The position numbers were made by a program, and so were the translations under genes. Positions 1,835 through 62,157 of a DNA stretch of 64,000 nt are shown here, piece by piece. Each line of letters starts with the position of its first letter. The stretch's first letter is position 1. The notes under the pieces are model-generated. The model saw nothing but the letters and a program-made list of their open reading frames with translations. It had not been told where the DNA came from and did not search any database. The stretch comes from a virus, in the IMG/VR virus record IMGVR_UViG_3300014874_000001, positions 1 through 64,000 of that record; one strand, 5' to 3'.

Positions 1835-2371
1835 ATGCCCCTAGTTATACTGGAAGGAGCCGATGGCTCCGGGAAGAGTACTCTTGCCACTCGACTCCTA
1901 AAGGGTACCGGACACCCTACCATACTCATAAAGAGATCGGGACCGCCCGGCAACGTCGAGACGCTGGTCTTCCAATCGGAGTGGATCGCACAGCAGTCCC
2001 GGCTCGGTCTAAACGTCATCGCCGATCGCCATCCGATTATATCCGAAGCGATCTATGCTCCGGTAGTTCGGAAGGTACCTGGACCGCACTGGGGTCCTGA
2101 GGACGCCTACAAGGCTCTCAAGCATCAGAGAGTTATGCTCGTCTACTGCCGGACCGACGACGTAACCCAGAGGGGGTCGTCCCACGTCGAGGACCAGATG
2201 GAGGGGGTACACGAGTACTACCAGGACCTCGTCAAGGAGTACGACCGCTGGATGGACTATATCCAGGATAAGGGAGTTCTCTTCTACCAATACAACTATT
2301 GGAACGATCCCAAGGCAGAGAACGTCACGGGGGTCATTCGTAACTTCTGGGAGGGAAAATGGACCGTCTAG
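1835..2371 (+). CDS. dNMP (thymidylate-type) kinase
   Basis: ATG 1835 with GGAGA at 1824-1828. MPLVILEGADGSGKSTLATRLL is a Tmk-type P-loop. The TTG 1820 extension was not used. Confidence 0.75.
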   Translation: MPLVILEGADGSGKSTLATRLLKGTGHPTILIKRSGPPGNVETLVFQSEWIAQQSRLGLNVIADRHPIISEAIYAPVVRKVPGPHWGPEDAYKALKHQRVMLVYCRTDDVTQRGSSHVEDQMEGVHEYYQDLVKEYDRWMDYIQDKGVLFYQYNYWNDPKAENVTGVIRNFWEGKWTV

Positions 2372-2955
2372 AGTCAATCTTCGAACACAAACTCATGTCC
2401 TCGGCAAACTTCCGCGCCGTCCAGCGGAAGCACGGCCTCATCCTCTGTCCTGAGAATCTATCCGCCGACTGGAAGACTCGCGAAGGAGCCATGGAACTGC
2501 ACAAGGGAATCCACTGGATCGGCCTGGAACTAGCCGAGTTTCTCAGCGCTCTACCATCCGAGCAGGAAGAGGAGCTAGCCGACGTGCTTCACTTTCTCGT
2601 AGAGTTCTGTATCCTCTGCGGATACGATCACACGGTGATCGACGGCTACGAGGACCGGCTCGATATCGTCTTCAACTCTTCAATCAACGACCCTCTGGTC
2701 TTCGCCGACTGCGATACGAACGCCCGGTTCACGATCGTCTCCGCGCTCTACGTCGCCGACATGATCAAGAACAAACCCTGGAAGCAGACGCTCAAGACCG
2801 AACGTGACGAGGACGACTTCAAGGCGCGGGTCCGCGGCCTCTGGTACTGGTACGGAGCGACTTGTCGGACCTTCGGCATGACCCCGCAGAGCCTCTTCGA
2901 CCAGTTCGTCCGGAAAGAAGAAATCAACTACAACCGAGTAGCGACTGGAGTATGA
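2359..2955 (+). CDS. All-alpha NTP pyrophosphohydrolase (dimeric dUTPase/dCTPase / MazG-like)
   Basis: Acidic helix EEELADVLHFLVEF and a KPWK motif, about 200 aa. GGGAGGG lies upstream of ATG 2359. Confidence 0.6.
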   Translation: MDRLESIFEHKLMSSANFRAVQRKHGLILCPENLSADWKTREGAMELHKGIHWIGLELAEFLSALPSEQEEELADVLHFLVEFCILCGYDHTVIDGYEDRLDIVFNSSINDPLVFADCDTNARFTIVSALYVADMIKNKPWKQTLKTERDEDDFKARVRGLWYWYGATCRTFGMTPQSLFDQFVRKEEINYNRVATGV

Positions 2956-3144: not shown

Positions 3145-3942
3145 ATGCTGACCCGCCTGATCCGCCACCTAATCCGACTCGAACCCGCATACCGAGGGGG
3201 ACTCTACAAGTTATTCAACGGTCTGACGTGGGAAGAGAAAAGGCTCCCGTCGTTGACCTACGACGACATCGGTTACAAAAACAACAAGGACGGACAGCTC
3301 CGAAAGAACTACATCAACGAGGAGGAGCTGGACCGCGTAGACAGCATCCTGAAGAAGCGTTCTGGAGGGCGTGGACATCACAATACCTCAGTTGCATTGG
3401 CCTTCCGAGGCGAGAAGAAGGCAAGCAAGTCCCAGGGGTGGTGCTTACTTTCGCTCGTCGTAAGCCGGATGAAGAGCCCGGCCCGCGAGATCGTTGAGAT
3501 TCACTACCGCTCGACCGAGGCACTCTTCAAGTTCCACGCCGACCTCGTACTTATGCAGTGGGTCTTCAACCGGCTCTCGCTCGATCCGGACGCCGTGAAG
3601 TTCCGGTTCGCGAATATCCATCTCTCCGGCGTATACCTCCCCGTCCTCTTTCAGTACTGGGACCAGGAGGACTTCATTGACTTCGTCGACAAGAACGACC
3701 GCGACTTTCTCAAGCGAGGACTCCGCTGGTTCCTGCGATCCTGCTATACGAAGGACCAATGGTTTCCCTTCTCGCCCGAGAACGTCATGCATAAGCTTAA
3801 CTGGGAACGGGGCGATCCCAGGACGGCCGTGAAAATACTTGACCCGTTGTTCCGGAAATACGGCTATGATTTGCCGAAGTTACACCACCAAAAAGACTCG
3901 TACGTAACCAGACGCAAGAAAAGCGTCGAGGAGGAAGAATGA
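3145..3942 (+). CDS. Highly divergent thymidylate-synthase-fold protein, function unknown
   Basis: ELDRVDSILKKRSGGRGHHNTSVALAF...QGWCLLSLVV...VEIHYRSTEALFKFHADLVLMQW mirrors the TS core layout (DQ..SRR..W / PCH..QF / RS.D / (N/D)). Cys is retained, with Asp at +33 after a 2-residue insertion. Confidence 0.5.
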   Translation: MLTRLIRHLIRLEPAYRGGLYKLFNGLTWEEKRLPSLTYDDIGYKNNKDGQLRKNYINEEELDRVDSILKKRSGGRGHHNTSVALAFRGEKKASKSQGWCLLSLVVSRMKSPAREIVEIHYRSTEALFKFHADLVLMQWVFNRLSLDPDAVKFRFANIHLSGVYLPVLFQYWDQEDFIDFVDKNDRDFLKRGLRWFLRSCYTKDQWFPFSPENVMHKLNWERGDPRTAVKILDPLFRKYGYDLPKLHHQKDSYVTRRKKSVEEEE

Positions 3943-5849: not shown

Positions 5850-6211
5850 TAATGCTAAACTTCCCGTTGGAGGCACTACAGACAATCGCGGCGGACAAGC
5901 TTCCACGCGTGCGAGTCGCGTTCCCTCAGGGGTCACAGATTCTGCATCTAGGCTCGGGTGGCCCGGAGTTCCCGGTGTGTCTCTCGGTCCTCGCGCCGAT
6001 CCGGCCGAAGAACGCCGATGGCACGATCAAGGAACTACAACCTCACGAGATTGCCGTGATGGAGTTTGCGGTCGTCACGCCGGGCGACGTGGTACCCGAA
6101 GGCTACATCTTCCGCGCTCCGGTTCGGACTCCCCAGGGATTGATCTTCCTGTTCGAGAAGAAGATGACGGGGCCGTCGATCCTCGTTCCACCGGGAGTAG
6201 GACGGGCATGA
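5846..6211 (+). CDS. Hypothetical protein (121 aa)
   Basis: ATG 5846 after GGAGAGAGG, with ATGA overlap to the upstream stop. Confidence 0.55.
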   Translation: MIMLNFPLEALQTIAADKLPRVRVAFPQGSQILHLGSGGPEFPVCLSVLAPIRPKNADGTIKELQPHEIAVMEFAVVTPGDVVPEGYIFRAPVRTPQGLIFLFEKKMTGPSILVPPGVGRA

Positions 6212-7038
6212 GAACCTACGGCAGCTTCGCTACGGCAATTGCGTCGGTTAGTAACCAGATGCGGGACGCTTCGTTCGAGGTCAATGGACTTAAGTGGCAG
6301 TCGATCGACGTATCGACGAAACCTGAGATGAAGATGCGAGAGTGTCTGAACGTCTCGTTCCAGGTCAACACACAGGGGATCGACGCCTGGTCGCACTACC
6401 ATAACGATATCAAGCCGAATTGGCCGTGGGCCGAAGATCATTTCCAGGAGCGAGTCGCGGGCGAGCCTCTGAACCCCGGAGAGCAATGGAAGAACTGGCC
6501 TTGGGCTCTATCGGCCGATAAGTTCCGGACCGAAGGCGAGAAGTTCAGCCATACCTACATGGAACGGTACTGGCCAAAGCTCGCGGGCGACGACGAGCAC
6601 TCGACCAAGGGATTCCTGCGAGGTATTCGATACCCTTACGGAGACCTCAATGATGTCGTCAATCATCTCCTGGGAGATCCACTTACCCGACAAGCGTATC
6701 TCCCTGTCTGGTTCCCGGAGGACACCGGCGTGGTCCATGGCGAGCGCGTTCCGTGTAGCCTGGGCTACCACTGGATTCTCCGTAACGGATATCTCCACAC
6801 CACGTATTACATCCGATCGTGCGACTTCTTCCGACACTTCCGCGACGACCTATACCTATCAATCAGGCTCTCGATCTGGCTCCTCCGACAGCTTCAAGAG
6901 ACAGAACAGGAGTCGGATCACCGTCGCTGGAACGACGTGAAACTCGGCTTCTTCACGTTTCATTGCGTCTCTCTCCATATGTTCATAAATGACTGGAACA
7001 GACTCTATGGCAAAGCGAGTCCTCAAGATTCCCGATGA
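6208..7038 (+). CDS. Thymidylate-synthase-family pyrimidine C5-transferase, dCMP-hydroxymethylase-like (Asp at specificity position)
   Basis: ATG 6208 (ATGA overlap). RQAYLPVWFPED...VPCSLGYHWILRNGYLHTTYYIRSCDFFRHFRDDLYL. Counting from the Cys: R+9, RS+20/21, D+23, FR+28/29, D+31. The track N-terminal extension 5977-6207 was rejected. Confidence 0.75.
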   Translation: MRTYGSFATAIASVSNQMRDASFEVNGLKWQSIDVSTKPEMKMRECLNVSFQVNTQGIDAWSHYHNDIKPNWPWAEDHFQERVAGEPLNPGEQWKNWPWALSADKFRTEGEKFSHTYMERYWPKLAGDDEHSTKGFLRGIRYPYGDLNDVVNHLLGDPLTRQAYLPVWFPEDTGVVHGERVPCSLGYHWILRNGYLHTTYYIRSCDFFRHFRDDLYLSIRLSIWLLRQLQETEQESDHRRWNDVKLGFFTFHCVSLHMFINDWNRLYGKASPQDSR

Positions 7039-7366
7039 CCTCACGTTCCAGCGAATCTACGACCGTGAGCGTAGCGGTCTGCGGTGCGTCGAGTACCAGT
7101 GCGAACGCTATCCGGACCTACGAATCCGGTCGCAGGGTCCGCCCGCCAACTGGTGGGACTGGACGGCCTACTACGTCGTGGATTCCGCGAACAACGTCGA
7201 GGGGTTCAGTAGTCTTCGCCGAGCTTACACGTTTCTGATGTCGAGACCGAGGAGAGTCGTACGTGACAAGAATATCCCGAGACGAGATGCTGATGGACAT
7301 CGCGTGGGTCGTAAGGCTGAGAAGTACGTGCCTCAGGCGTCAGGTCGGGGCCGTCCTTGCCGTTGA
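6989..7366 (+). CDS. Hypothetical protein; the 3' part overlaps the dCMP deaminase start
   Basis: Track ORF. Alternative start ATG 7007 (MAKRVLKIPDD...). The last ~35 codons are Arg-rich and overprint the next gene. Confidence 0.4.
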   Translation: MTGTDSMAKRVLKIPDDLTFQRIYDRERSGLRCVEYQCERYPDLRIRSQGPPANWWDWTAYYVVDSANNVEGFSSLRRAYTFLMSRPRRVVRDKNIPRRDADGHRVGRKAEKYVPQASGRGRPCR

Positions 7367-7778
7367 CGGTCGGGTCCTATCCTCAGGGTACAACGGAGCA
7401 CCCTCAGGCTTACCGCACTGTAATCCTACTACCTGTTCGGCGGATCGGCCCTGCGTCGATACCGTTCACGGAGAAGCCAATGCAATCGCTTTTGCCGCCC
7501 GCTACGGAATCCGAGTCGAAGGAGCCACCCTCTACACAACTGCCAGTCCCTGTAGGGCCTGTGCAATCCTTGCCATCAACGCCGGAATCGTCCGAGTTGT
7601 CTACGATACAGAGTACCGGGACACCAGTCCCATTGCGCTACTCAAACAAGCCGGAGTACGAATCGAACGATGGTCCCTTAATCATTCCCCTCCCGAGGTG
7701 TCGACTCTGCCAACGTCCAGTAGAATCTATCCGAGTGGAACCGGACGTGGGGAAGGGGATGCTGAAGGTAACGGCTAG
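7263..7778 (+). CDS. dCMP deaminase (ComEB/cd type)
   Basis: RISRDEMLMDIAWVVRLRSTC, VHGEANAI (HxE) and SPCRACA (PCxxC) zinc motifs. GTG start follows GAGGAG. Confidence 0.85.
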   Translation: MTRISRDEMLMDIAWVVRLRSTCLRRQVGAVLAVDGRVLSSGYNGAPSGLPHCNPTTCSADRPCVDTVHGEANAIAFAARYGIRVEGATLYTTASPCRACAILAINAGIVRVVYDTEYRDTSPIALLKQAGVRIERWSLNHSPPEVSTLPTSSRIYPSGTGRGEGDAEGNG

Positions 7779-7863
7779 TTGCCATGCTCGACAGGAGACG
7801 GTCTGGGTAGAGTTACAGGACCTCCTAAACTCAATCGCCCTCGAACCTGGAGAAGCGTTCTAG
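7633..7863 (+). CDS. Possible small zinc-ribbon protein overlapping the deaminase 3' end (start uncertain)
   Basis: C-terminal part of track ORF 7357..7863: ...PRCRLCQRPVESIRVEPDVGKGMLKVTASCHARQETVWVELQDLLNSIALEPGEAF. Third-position GC is higher than in the two competing frames by my count. Its TAG overlaps the polymerase GTG (TAGTG). The TTG 7633 start is a guess. Confidence 0.35.
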   Translation: MRYSNKPEYESNDGPLIIPLPRCRLCQRPVESIRVEPDVGKGMLKVTASCHARQETVWVELQDLLNSIALEPGEAF

Positions 7864-10412
7864 TGCCCTCGCTGAATCCCGCCTGTACGAAGTGTCCGCT
7901 ACATAAAACAACGGACGGTACCGTCTGTCTGGCAGGCGAGGGGCCGCGCAACGCGACGGTCATGGTCGTTGGGGAAGCTCCGGGCCGCGAAGAAGAGAGG
8001 ACTGGCCGCCCGTTCATGGGTGCCAGCGGACAGAAACTCAGAGCGGAGTTACGGAAAAATGGATTGGATGGGGATGTTTTTATTACTAACGTGGTACGCT
8101 GCCGTCCTCCTGATAATCGTACACCGGCCGCTGCGGAGATCAAGGCGTGCCGAGAGTACTTGGACTACGAGATCGCGCGCATTAAGCCCGAGATTGTCGT
8201 TTCGCTTGGGGCCACGCCCACGAAAGCGCTCTTCAAAGGGGTCGCAGCGGTAACGAAGCACCACGGCAAGCTAATTCCCCCGGACAAACACCCGTTCACA
8301 GGGTACGTCTCCTACCACCCAGCGGCGATGCTCTACGATCCGGGCAAGGAGGTAGACTTCCAACAAGACATCGCTCGGCTCGCGCGGATCGCCCGGGACG
8401 AACCCCCGCCCGACAATACGCTGAACTGGGCAATTCTCCGTCGAGGGAACCTCCAGAAGTTCCTCCGTGAGTTTCGCGAGGCGCCTGAGTTCTCCTTCGA
8501 CCTGGAAACCTCTGGCCTTTTCATGCACGACGGACAGGGGTGGATTAACTGCGTCGGGATCGGGCTGCAGAACCGCACATGGGTTATTCCACGAATGCGA
8601 CCGGGCTGGTATCCGTCGCGAGCGAACTCGAAAAAGCTCAAGTTCCACCGAGGCTCCCCGTGGTGTCGGGGGAAGTCCTTCGAGTTTCTCATGCGGATGA
8701 TTATCGGCATGGCGATCCGAGGGAACAAAGGCGTTATCGCTCAGAACGGCAAATTCGATAACCTGTGGCTCCAGCGCTACGTCAACCGTCGGTTTAAGAT
8801 TACGTTCGATACGATGCTCGCGAGTCATACGCTCGATGAGAATGAAGAGCATGATCTTAAGTCGATGTCCCGCAAGTATCTCGACGTGCCCGAGTATGAT
8901 CTGACGACGGCCGAGAAGCGCGGCATTGTCGATCCGATGAAGCTGTTCCAGTATAACGCTCGGGACTGCGGCTATACGCTTCGGCTAAAACACGTCTTCC
9001 AGAAGAAGCTGGAGGAAGAGGAGAGCCAGTTCCGGCTGTTCTATGAGCTCGTCATGCCAGCCGTCCGGGCAATGGAGGATATCGAGCTAGAGGGCAAGAC
9101 GATGAACGTCACGGCCCTAGAAGAACTCGGACTCGACCTTCTGTCCCGCGAGATCAAGCTTAAGCATGACCTCAAGGCCCTCGTCGGTGGAAAGGAGGTT
9201 AACTGGAATTCGCCGAAGCAGGTCGGTGCGATTCTCTATGGGGACCTCGGGATCAAGTGCGTAGCGTTTACGGCTAAGGGCGCGCCGTCTACGGGCGAGA
9301 CCGCGATCCTAGACCTCAAGGGTAAGCATCCAATCGTCGACAAACTCATCGAAGTCCGCGAAGTCTCGAAATTCAGGAGTACGTATGTTATCGGATTCCA
9401 GAAACTCATGGTCGAGGACAAGCTCTACATTTCATACAAAATCCACGGAACAGTTACAGGTCGATATGCCTCGCGTATACACTCGATCCCACGCGACGGG
9501 TCCGTTCGGAATCTGGTTATCGCGCCACCGGGCTGGAAATTTTTCCAAGCGGATATCTCTCAAGCCGAACTCCGAATCATAGCCCAGATGTCGGGCGACC
9601 TCGAAATGAGAAAGTGCTTTACCGAGGGAATAGACATCCACTGGCGGACGATGATGTTCGCGATCGCGGCCGGGTATATCTCGGGAGAGTACGCCCAGCG
9701 GGTAATCGACACAGCCGAGAAGACCACCGGAAAGAAAATGCGGATATCGGAAGCGTGCGACGAGCTACTGAAGATAGGCCACGAGGCCGCGATCAAGATT
9801 TGGCCTGGTTGGAAAGAGGCCCGGAAGAAAGCGAAGGCGATCAACTTCGGATACGTCTATGGAATGTACGAGAAGAAGTTCATACTCACCGCGAAAACCA
9901 AATACGGTTGGGAGCCAACATGGGACGAGGCACACGCTTGCAGGGAAGGCTACTTTCAACTCTACAGCGATTTACCCCGCTGGCACGACAAGCAAAAGAA
10001 ACTCGTGAAGCTGAACGGTTTCGTGAGGACCTTCTTTGGCCGTCGCAGACGGCTACCGGGGATCGAATCGAGCGAGAAGGGACTTCGCATGGAAGCCGAG
10101 AGACAGGCGATCAATTCTCCGGTTCAAGGTACGATTGGTGACTGGAAGGCGGCCGTCCTCGTCGAAATCCACGAGACCCTCGATCGCGATAAGCTCAGGC
10201 TAGTCGGAGAACACCACGACGCGCTCCTTGGCCTGATTCGCGACGGCTGCGAAGACGAGATGCTGCCGCAGGTAATCAAGATTATACGCAAGCCTCGGTT
10301 GCTTCAGAAGTTCAAGGTCCGCATGGAGATACCGATGGACGGAGAGATCGAGATAGGTCCGTGGGGCGCCGGGAAAGCATACAAGCTTCCAATTACAAAG
10401 AAAGTCGCGTAG
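7863..10412 (+). CDS. Family-4 uracil-DNA-glycosylase domain fused to 3'-5' exonuclease and family A DNA polymerase
   Basis: UDG4: CTKCPL, GEAPGREEERTGRPFMGASG, VVRCRPPDNRTPAAAEIKAC (4 Fe-S Cys), HHG, YHPAAMLY. Exo: FSFDLETSGL, AQNGKFDNLWL, YNARDCGYT. Pol: FFQADISQAELRI (A), RKKAKAINFGYVYGM (B), GEHHDAL (C). Start set at GTG 7863 because the 7779-7862 extension has low GC3. Confidence 0.9.
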   Translation: MPSLNPACTKCPLHKTTDGTVCLAGEGPRNATVMVVGEAPGREEERTGRPFMGASGQKLRAELRKNGLDGDVFITNVVRCRPPDNRTPAAAEIKACREYLDYEIARIKPEIVVSLGATPTKALFKGVAAVTKHHGKLIPPDKHPFTGYVSYHPAAMLYDPGKEVDFQQDIARLARIARDEPPPDNTLNWAILRRGNLQKFLREFREAPEFSFDLETSGLFMHDGQGWINCVGIGLQNRTWVIPRMRPGWYPSRANSKKLKFHRGSPWCRGKSFEFLMRMIIGMAIRGNKGVIAQNGKFDNLWLQRYVNRRFKITFDTMLASHTLDENEEHDLKSMSRKYLDVPEYDLTTAEKRGIVDPMKLFQYNARDCGYTLRLKHVFQKKLEEEESQFRLFYELVMPAVRAMEDIELEGKTMNVTALEELGLDLLSREIKLKHDLKALVGGKEVNWNSPKQVGAILYGDLGIKCVAFTAKGAPSTGETAILDLKGKHPIVDKLIEVREVSKFRSTYVIGFQKLMVEDKLYISYKIHGTVTGRYASRIHSIPRDGSVRNLVIAPPGWKFFQADISQAELRIIAQMSGDLEMRKCFTEGIDIHWRTMMFAIAAGYISGEYAQRVIDTAEKTTGKKMRISEACDELLKIGHEAAIKIWPGWKEARKKAKAINFGYVYGMYEKKFILTAKTKYGWEPTWDEAHACREGYFQLYSDLPRWHDKQKKLVKLNGFVRTFFGRRRRLPGIESSEKGLRMEAERQAINSPVQGTIGDWKAAVLVEIHETLDRDKLRLVGEHHDALLGLIRDGCEDEMLPQVIKIIRKPRLLQKFKVRMEIPMDGEIEIGPWGAGKAYKLPITKKVA

Positions 10413-60914: not shown

Positions 60915-61375
60915 CACCAGCACATCAGTGGTTAGCGATCGCGTTCTTTGTCGGAGTCGGCCTCATTCTCGGAGCGCTGGTCTTATGGAAGCGTACGATC
61001 TGGGCAAAGAAGAAGGACCTCAGTGGAGGGTTCCTGACCGAGCGGGAGTTGAACTCACGAATGGGACCGCCCCCCGATCTGCGTGAGAGGATGGGTCCTT
61101 CACCCGAGCTACTGCATGAGCGCTGGGAGGACTTCGAGCGCGCGAAGCGAACGCCGCGACGCGGACCGCTCGCTGTCGATCTAGCGCAAGAGCAGAAGCG
61201 CAGAGAGCGTGATCCACTCGACGAGAAGGGCTTCTATGGTCCCGGGGGACTCATGGGAGTCGGCGCGCTCGGGTCAATCGCGAACGAGCACGTGCATCAC
61301 TCGCCACCGGACTGCTCACCCTCCGACTCGGGATCGAGCGATAGCGGGAGCTGCGATTCGGGCGGTGGAGAATGA
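60911..61375 (+). CDS. Membrane-anchored protein with Ser/Asp/Gly-rich C-terminus
   Basis: WLAIAFFVGVGLILGALVLW TM segment. ATGA overlap. Confidence 0.55.
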   Translation: MTPAHQWLAIAFFVGVGLILGALVLWKRTIWAKKKDLSGGFLTERELNSRMGPPPDLRERMGPSPELLHERWEDFERAKRTPRRGPLAVDLAQEQKRRERDPLDEKGFYGPGGLMGVGALGSIANEHVHHSPPDCSPSDSGSSDSGSCDSGGGE

Positions 61376-62157
61376 AGACCGAAGTACTCGACCACGGCTA
61401 CATCCGTCTGGTATCGTATACGCAGCCAGTACCGGACGGGCTTGATAAGCATGGATGGGCCATGAGAGATCGGAGCTGGACGGGCGATCTGGAGATCGTA
61501 CGGGCTGCGCGCGTCTCGTACAACGCCGACTGGAGAAAGAACGACCTCAACCTCGGCCAGTCTTCCGACGAGAAGCTGATCGATTTCCTCTGGAGAAACA
61601 AGCATACCAGTCCGTTCGAGGCGATGACGTTCTCGTTCGAGGTGCAAGCTCCGATCTTCGTCTTTCGCCAGTGGCATCGGCATAGGACGCAGAGCTACAA
61701 CGAGGTCTCGGCTCGTTACACTGAGCTGCCCGAGCTGTTCTATGTTCCGGACGCAGACCAGGTACGGGCTCAATCGAAGTCGAACAAGCAGGGCCGAGAC
61801 GAGGAGCTGGACGGGAGGTCGGTGACTCTCTTTCGCCAACAGCTGACGGAGGAGTCGTCCTCGCAGTTTAACTCGTACCAGTTCTGGCTCGCCCAAGGCG
61901 TAGCAAGGGAGCTGGCGCGGCTCTACCTACCGGTGAACACGTACAGCCGGATGTACGCAAGCGCAAATCTCCTTAACTGGTTTCGGTTCCTAACCCTCCG
62001 CGCGGACCTACATGCCCAGTACGAGATCCGGGTCTACGCCGAGGCGATGGTCGCGATGCTAGCGAGCGTCTGTCCGATCGCGGTCACGGCCTTCCTCCGA
62101 TACAGATTCGACGTGACCGACGTAGACGCCGAGCGGGAGCGGAATACCGGGCTCTGA
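61372..62157 (+). CDS. thyX: Flavin-dependent thymidylate synthase ThyX
   Basis: FRQWHRHRTQSYNEVSARY (RHRxxSxxxxSxR ThyX motif), 261 aa. Confidence 0.9.
   Translation: MKTEVLDHGYIRLVSYTQPVPDGLDKHGWAMRDRSWTGDLEIVRAARVSYNADWRKNDLNLGQSSDEKLIDFLWRNKHTSPFEAMTFSFEVQAPIFVFRQWHRHRTQSYNEVSARYTELPELFYVPDADQVRAQSKSNKQGRDEELDGRSVTLFRQQLTEESSSQFNSYQFWLAQGVARELARLYLPVNTYSRMYASANLLNWFRFLTLRADLHAQYEIRVYAEAMVAMLASVCPIAVTAFLRYRFDVTDVDAERERNTGL

Follow-up and report, generated by a model that had tools for sequence, protein, structure and literature searches.

The window, i.e., the whole stretch of 64,000 nucleotides that was analysed, belongs to a complete phage genome of 67,068 bp with terminal repeats. [quoted passage not shown] The frame stays open upstream as far as a TTG at 7779, and this longer start was rejected: it shows no conservation, and both the ribosome-binding site and the close relatives, whose polymerases begin at the equivalent position, favor the GTG at 7863. 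The fusion is the only PolA in the complete genome and is followed by genes for a Cas4-like nuclease, an AAA_24 protein and an SNF2 helicase, so that its role as the replicative family A polymerase of the phage, claimed in the initial annotation, can safely be inferred. Domain profiles detected no 5′-3′ exonuclease domain in the 849-aa protein.

Table 1. Features of the UDG-PolA locus and of the associated nucleotide genes, in window coordinates (Tth, Thermus UDGa)
Feature	Position	Strand	Basis
Nucleotide kinase and dimeric dUTPase-family gene	1835..2955	+	Weak kinase matches; PF08761 just over cut-off
TS2, second diverged TS-like gene (Cys, Arg-Ser, Asp pattern)	3145..3942	+	Motif alignment; no Pfam match
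TS1, thymidylate-synthase homologue, Asp at E. coli ThyA N177 position (dCMP-type)	6208..7038	+	Profiles, alignment
dCMP-deaminase-family gene	7263..7778	+	PF00383
Likely ribosome-binding site GGAGA	7849..7853	+	Sequence, 9 nt before GTG start; start position common to relatives
UDG-PolA gene, 849 aa (family-4 UDG, 3′-5′ exonuclease, family A polymerase)	7863..10412	+	Frame, profiles and AlphaFold2 model
Family-4 UDG domain, residues 1-180	7863..8402	+	TIGR00758, Z 24.9 to 1l9g, Foldseek
CxxC (CTKC), Fe-S ligands C8/C11 = Tth C13, C16	7884..7895	+	Alignment to 1ui0 and conservation
Motif A GEAPGREEE (G37-E45): E38/A39 = Tth E41/G42; E44 = Tth E47, excludes thymine	7971..7997	+	Alignment
F51, base-stacking residue = Tth F54	8013..8015	+	Alignment
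N76 (Tth N80, uracil N3/O4), C80 and C96 (Fe-S ligands), N85 (Tth N89, water positioning)	8088..8150	+	Alignment
Motif B HPAA, catalytic H152 = Tth H155	8316..8327	+	Alignment
3′-5′ exonuclease domain	8418..9017	+	Pfam and alignment
PolA domain	9018..10409	+	Pfam, alignment, fold
ThyX (dUMP to dTMP)	61372..62157	+	PF02511

Nucleotide genes around the polymerase

The polymerase gene lies behind a block of nucleotide-metabolism genes, and a ThyX is encoded elsewhere in the window, so that the phage can supply ordinary thymine. TS1 and TS2 both carry, by motif alignment, an aspartate at the position of N177 in the numbering of E. coli ThyA. An aspartate at this position marks the use of dCMP (PMC13326640), and neighbourhoods that combine a deaminase, a dCMP-type thymidylate synthase (TS) and a PolA are enriched in cytosine-modified phage DNA (10.1101/2024.12.05.627091). 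Since the polymerase usually follows two dCMP-type TS homologues and a deaminase in the relatives described below, their clade is probably tied to the modification of cytosine rather than of thymine. The profile PF00303 failed to detect TS1 even in its own genome, and TS1 itself was used as the query, with positive controls; the cultured phages Muddy, Serbin and PMBT14 are among the members of its family. An incomplete literature search found no base analysis for PMBT14, Muddy or the Gordonia cluster CT phages, and no paper joining the term “UDG-PolA” with cytosine. Six-base palindromes are depleted throughout the genome (mean observed/expected ratio 0.68), with CTCGAG found 3 times vs 43 expected, TTCGAA 4 vs 29 and AGGCCT 2 vs 17, which calls a full replacement of cytosine into question; four-base palindromes are not depleted.

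Two further frames were noted at the locus. A frame of 752 codons runs from position 1689 leftwards across the genome end on the minus strand, i.e., it is transcribed away from the nucleotide operon, and resembles, by eye, a primase-helicase-like gene that lies upstream of the polymerase in two other loci (L014 and L021). A small frame of about 60 aa, with a CxxC and a later CH, occupies positions 7678-7863 (+), where its TAG overlaps the GTG of the polymerase; a homologue sits in the same place in L012:1404-1598 (E 1e-13), and in both genomes it occupies the +1 frame relative to the tail of the deaminase. Near its conserved start the window copy lacks ATG, GTG and TTG; it may begin at a non-canonical codon or be expressed as a frameshift fusion.

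Domains of the fusion protein

The first ~180 residues had been assigned to family 4 of the uracil-DNA glycosylases from their motifs, with an exonuclease and a polymerase behind them, and the profile searches bear this out. The family-4 profile TIGR00758 (NCBIfam) matches residues 8-176 with 159 bits (E 9e-47; cut-off 125.3), and along the protein the Pfam domains UDG (25-163), DNA_pol_A_exo1 and DNA_pol_A follow one another, all above their cut-offs. The motif A consensus GE(A/G)PG is matched by G37-E-A-P-G41, and the motifs GRPFMG (G48-G53) and CRPPDNRTP (C80-P88) are present. In Thermus UDGa, the residues E41, G42, E47, F54, N80, N89 and H155 make up the uracil pocket and the catalytic site; E47 keeps thymine out, whereas N80 binds N3 and O4 of uracil, the only substrate of family-4 enzymes (PMC5387724). 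Alignment to the Thermus structure 1ui0 places E38, A39, E44, F51, N76, N85 and H152 of the window protein at these positions, so that the pocket, which the initial annotation had wished to see checked for degeneracy in a structural alignment, is whole and canonical. The four Fe-S cysteines C8, C11, C80 and C96 align with those of 1ui0, 4zbx and 1l9g, and in an alignment of 118 sequences, counting the query, the individual pocket residues are found in 102-115. The stand-alone family-4 enzymes of Thermus (1ui0), Sulfolobus (4zbx) and Thermotoga (1l9g) thus share the fold, 35-40% identity, the pocket and catalytic residues and the four cysteines with the window domain, which differs from them in its fusion to a polymerase and in the alanine that replaces the glycine after the motif A glutamate, a normal family-4 variant (PMC10359453). 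A covalent uracil binder of the UdgX type, marked by a motif A glutamine and an R-loop (PMC10359453), was considered and rejected: Ala39 stands where UdgX has Gln, CRPPDN replaces the KRRIH R-loop, and TIGR03914, which tests for UdgX, scored 117, below its cut-off of 190.

The AlphaFold2 model of the 849-aa protein has a mean pLDDT of 91.7 and a pTM of 0.86. Its residues 1-180 superimpose on the T. maritima UDG 1l9g with an rmsd of 2.3 Å over 177 residues, and the best Foldseek matches of the domain are the family-4 structures 4zbx and 1ui0. The domain is under purifying selection, the dN/dS against the closest relative being ~0.04, a rough value with dS near saturation.

Behind the glycosylase, the motifs Exo I-III and the polymerase motifs A, B and C are all present, as in a proofreading family A DNA polymerase. 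The exonuclease residues D213, E215, D299, Y364 and D368 are invariant in the 118 aligned sequences, as are the catalytic residues of the polymerase, whose motifs comprise D564 (A), R654/K658/F662 (B) and H785/D786 (C). The polymerase region aligns to enzymes of Klenow size. Relative to Klenow, a helical insertion of ~40 residues is found in the fingers just before motif B (residues 598-650, window 9654-9812); it is conserved in the clade and larger still in L012 and L096.

Known fusions and the clade of the window protein

The initial annotation suspected that fusions of this kind might already be on record, and they are. A protein search gave 701 matches with E values no higher than 1e-50, and among the 120 best of these, 118 show the same three Pfam domains; the architecture is not a chance match. 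Czernecki et al. (2023) named the UDG-PolAs and distinguished inactive ones in N4-like phages from putatively active ones in SPO1, SP-10, SP-15 and prophage examples (PMC10201439). Missoury et al. (2026) determined the polymerase structures of phiLo and YerA41 (PDB 9qhs, 9qlh) and found that the fused UDG excises template uracil ahead of the polymerase site, that 5-substituted thymine is spared, and that the polymerase passes the resulting abasic site mostly by inserting dA; the fused domain of phiLo is of type IV, with a catalytic Glu and His, and its activity and mechanism were demonstrated (PMC13697223). The fusion is therefore already known and structurally characterised, and the window protein is a further example.

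The SP15-like polymerases (phiLo, YerA41, SP-15) share with it the order of UDG, 3′-5′ exonuclease and PolA, and the position of a phage replicase adjoining base-modification genes. In contrast to the window protein, however, they exceed 1,100 aa (by definition 1,000 aa) and possess Insert 1, Insert 2 and a C-terminal domain, all absent here, and their genomes are hypermodified at thymine, whereas the dCMP-type TS homologues and ThyX of the window point to cytosine. In structural alignments, identity to the tested enzymes phiLo and YerA41 is 15-18%. SP15-like phages also co-encode a PolX and a DNA ligase, whereas PolX (PF14792, with a weak control), ATP-dependent ligase (PF01068) and, in addition, family-2 AP endonuclease (PF01261) gave no match in the complete genome studied here; the absence of a profile match is weak evidence, but on this basis downstream repair would depend on the host.

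The same compact architecture is found in the SPO1-like proteins (SPO1 gp31, SP-10, Shanette, CP-51) and in unclustered ones such as the Caldanaerobius prophage protein (PMC10201439), for which nucleotide-metabolism genes are reported upstream, as in the window. SPO1 gp31 is of similar length (924 aa) and homologous over its full length (25%, E 2e-54); its UDG domain (L032:63-2837), however, aligns without the four cysteines and without equivalents of F54 and N80, all of which the window protein has, SPO1 DNA contains 5hmU, and gp31 forms a long branch outside the 84-row clade of the window in a FastTree tree that carries a long-branch warning. The literature lists the SPO1-like UDG domains as catalytically conserved, in contrast to the gp31 alignment obtained here. 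The N4-like UDG-PolAs (cluster 17, PMC10201439) likewise combine a family-4 UDG with PolA in 800-900 aa, but their UDG domains have lost catalytic residues that the window protein keeps in full, and the homology of N4 itself is weak and confined to the polymerase part; the window protein is thus not N4-like.

The nearest cultured relatives are Pseudomonas phage PMBT14, Serratia phage Serbin, Clostridium phage CPD4, Brevundimonas phage Polewnik, Gordonia phages including Margaret, and Muddy and Zuko, whose polymerases fall in the same clade (28-35% identity where listed). They share largely the same block of kinase, dUTPase, TS2, TS1, deaminase (in most), polymerase and Cas4-like nuclease, but their UDG pockets are decayed, with 0-2 of five key residues left, while that of the window is intact. 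The papers searched held no characterisation of these polymerases.

This contrast was followed through the clade by recording, for ~110 loci, the state of five pocket residues and of the four cysteines and the presence of the TS block; the loci were reduced to 86 non-redundant ones, and a FastTree tree was built from the exonuclease and polymerase domains. The clade is large and consists of compact UDG-PolAs (~830 aa). On this tree, at least 16 changes of pocket state are needed, as opposed to 4 changes in the cysteine set. In the 38 decayed domains, counting covered positions, C8 is kept in 32/32, C11 in 32/32, C80 in 35/37 and C96 in 33/36, as opposed to N76 in 7/35 and H152 in 14/38; overall, the cysteines are kept at 92-100% of covered positions and the pocket residues at 17-37%.

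Some members depart from the common pattern. In L023:1885-6099 an intein interrupts the UDG domain immediately before C80, one of the Fe-S ligands, and a second insert lies near polymerase motif B, a site at which L022 also carries an insert. The clade of L058, L067 and L096, which is without the TS block, has the motif A GQNPG, resembling the GQDP of family 1, and keeps the other pocket residues; in Thermus UDGa, E41Q alone cripples the enzyme, and a change at the next position rescues it (PMC5387724).

Probable role of the glycosylase at the fork

With the architecture, the intact pocket and cysteines, the fold and the purifying selection established for the window protein, its UDG domain is probably an ordinary, working family-4 uracil-DNA glycosylase, carried at the fork by fusion to the N-terminus of the replicase. 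The match of the pocket to Thermus UDGa, the score above the family-4 cut-off, the fold and the activity of the type-IV domain of phiLo all argue for this reading. By analogy with phiLo and YerA41, the domain would contact the single-stranded template ahead of the polymerase site and excise uracil from it, after which the polymerase would bypass the abasic site, mostly by inserting dA, and host enzymes would complete the repair, so that A:T pairs would be restored where dUTP had been misincorporated. The template-side geometry of phiLo is here assumed, because the window model has no rigid superposition on phiLo across all domains (rmsd 14.4 Å) and the tested enzymes are distant. Bypass with dA should be accurate where the uracil stems from misincorporated dUTP, but mutagenic where it stems from deaminated cytosine; since it is accurate in the former case, and the phage has a deaminase, a dUTPase-family enzyme and ThyX, dUTP-derived uracil would be the likelier target. 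The glycosylase would then be an optional clean-up extra, and the clade may retain the domain chiefly as a folded unit around its Fe-S cluster. Of the coupled proofreading against uracil that had been proposed initially, a replication-coupled removal of uracil is probable, but in the mechanism known so far uracil is cut out of the template before the fork reaches it, which is neither proofreading nor stalling.

It is unlikely, if conceivable, that the domain is purely structural in the window too, i.e., a template guide or a module for processivity or strand displacement whose intact pocket is ancestral and has so far escaped decay. Such a role would fit the repeated loss of the pocket while the cysteines persist, which extends to the close sisters L037/L038 and L051 and to all the cultured relatives fetched (PMBT14, Serbin, CPD4, Polewnik, Margaret, Muddy, Zuko), and a non-catalytic role has been proposed for the N4-like domains (PMC10201439, PMC13697223). 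All seven pocket residues, however, are identical in the window protein and its three nearest relatives, between which synonymous divergence is saturated, and because decayed domains lose these residues together, the fact that all are kept implies selection for catalysis. The probability is lower still that the glycosylase is an obligate part of a cytosine-modification pathway, in which it would purge the uracil made by the deaminase so that only the intended bases remain. The order of kinase, dUTPase-like, TS2, TS1, deaminase and polymerase genes in the window and most relatives suggests such a link, as does the published tie of deaminase, dCMP-type TS and PolA to modified cytosine, but the survey does not: among non-redundant loci with enough upstream DNA, the 57 that bear TS1 comprise 24 intact pockets, 32 decayed ones and 1 with a single substitution, vs 4 intact, 2 decayed and 3 with a single substitution in those without TS1, and no significant link of pocket state to TS1 was found (Fisher p 0.40). 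Among 11 independent pairs with unlike pocket states, none differs in the presence of TS1 or the TS block, a comparison of low power owing to the few rows without TS1, and pocket state is not significantly linked to ThyX (5/11 vs 5/18, p 0.43); a coupling to either was therefore set aside as unsupported. Moreover, the pocket is intact in L023, which falls in the same clade as the window protein and whose complete genome contains no TS1. Decayed pockets beside TS1, together with L023, indicate that the modification genes work without the glycosylase site and that the site persists without them.

The least probable reading, and a very improbable one, is that the domain has taken on a new task, the reading or excision of a base other than uracil, either unmodified cytosine or the deamination product of a modified cytosine, and so enforces modification at the fork. 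The context of two dCMP-type TS homologues would be in keeping with this, and a selectivity role has been speculated for SPO1 (PMC10201439). N76 and E44, however, correspond to the residues by which uracil is preferred to cytosine and 5-substituted bases are shut out, uracil is the sole substrate of the family (PMC5387724), and the depletion of six-base palindromes casts doubt on a full replacement of cytosine. The earlier suggestions of action on an unmodified base and of a repurposed base reader thus find no match in this canonical pocket, with its Asn that reads N3 and O4 of uracil and its thymine-blocking Glu, and a reader of modified or unmodified bases is unlikely. The proposed tie to the rewiring of pyrimidine pools is loose: many relatives have the rewiring genes with a decayed pocket, and some have the pocket without the genes.

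As the fusion is known, the window example alone adds little, and the added value is comparative. The protein is a smaller representative with an intact pocket, drawn from a large, uncharacterised clade whose members have repeatedly lost the glycosylase site and kept the cluster cysteines. This bears on the question raised in both UDG-PolA papers (PMC10201439, PMC13697223), i.e., whether the fused domain serves mainly in repair or as a module for processivity or for guiding the template, and the survey speaks against any strict coupling of the fused glycosylase to base modification. A tentative and somewhat doubtful generalisation is that these proteins form a distinct, widespread UDG-PolA subfamily of cytosine-modifying phages, in which the replicase would require the Fe-S domain in a non-catalytic capacity, with uracil excision as an accessory that has been lost many times. 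If this is true, natural live/dead pairs, with PMBT14, Serbin and Muddy available in culture, could reveal the role of the fused domain apart from catalysis.
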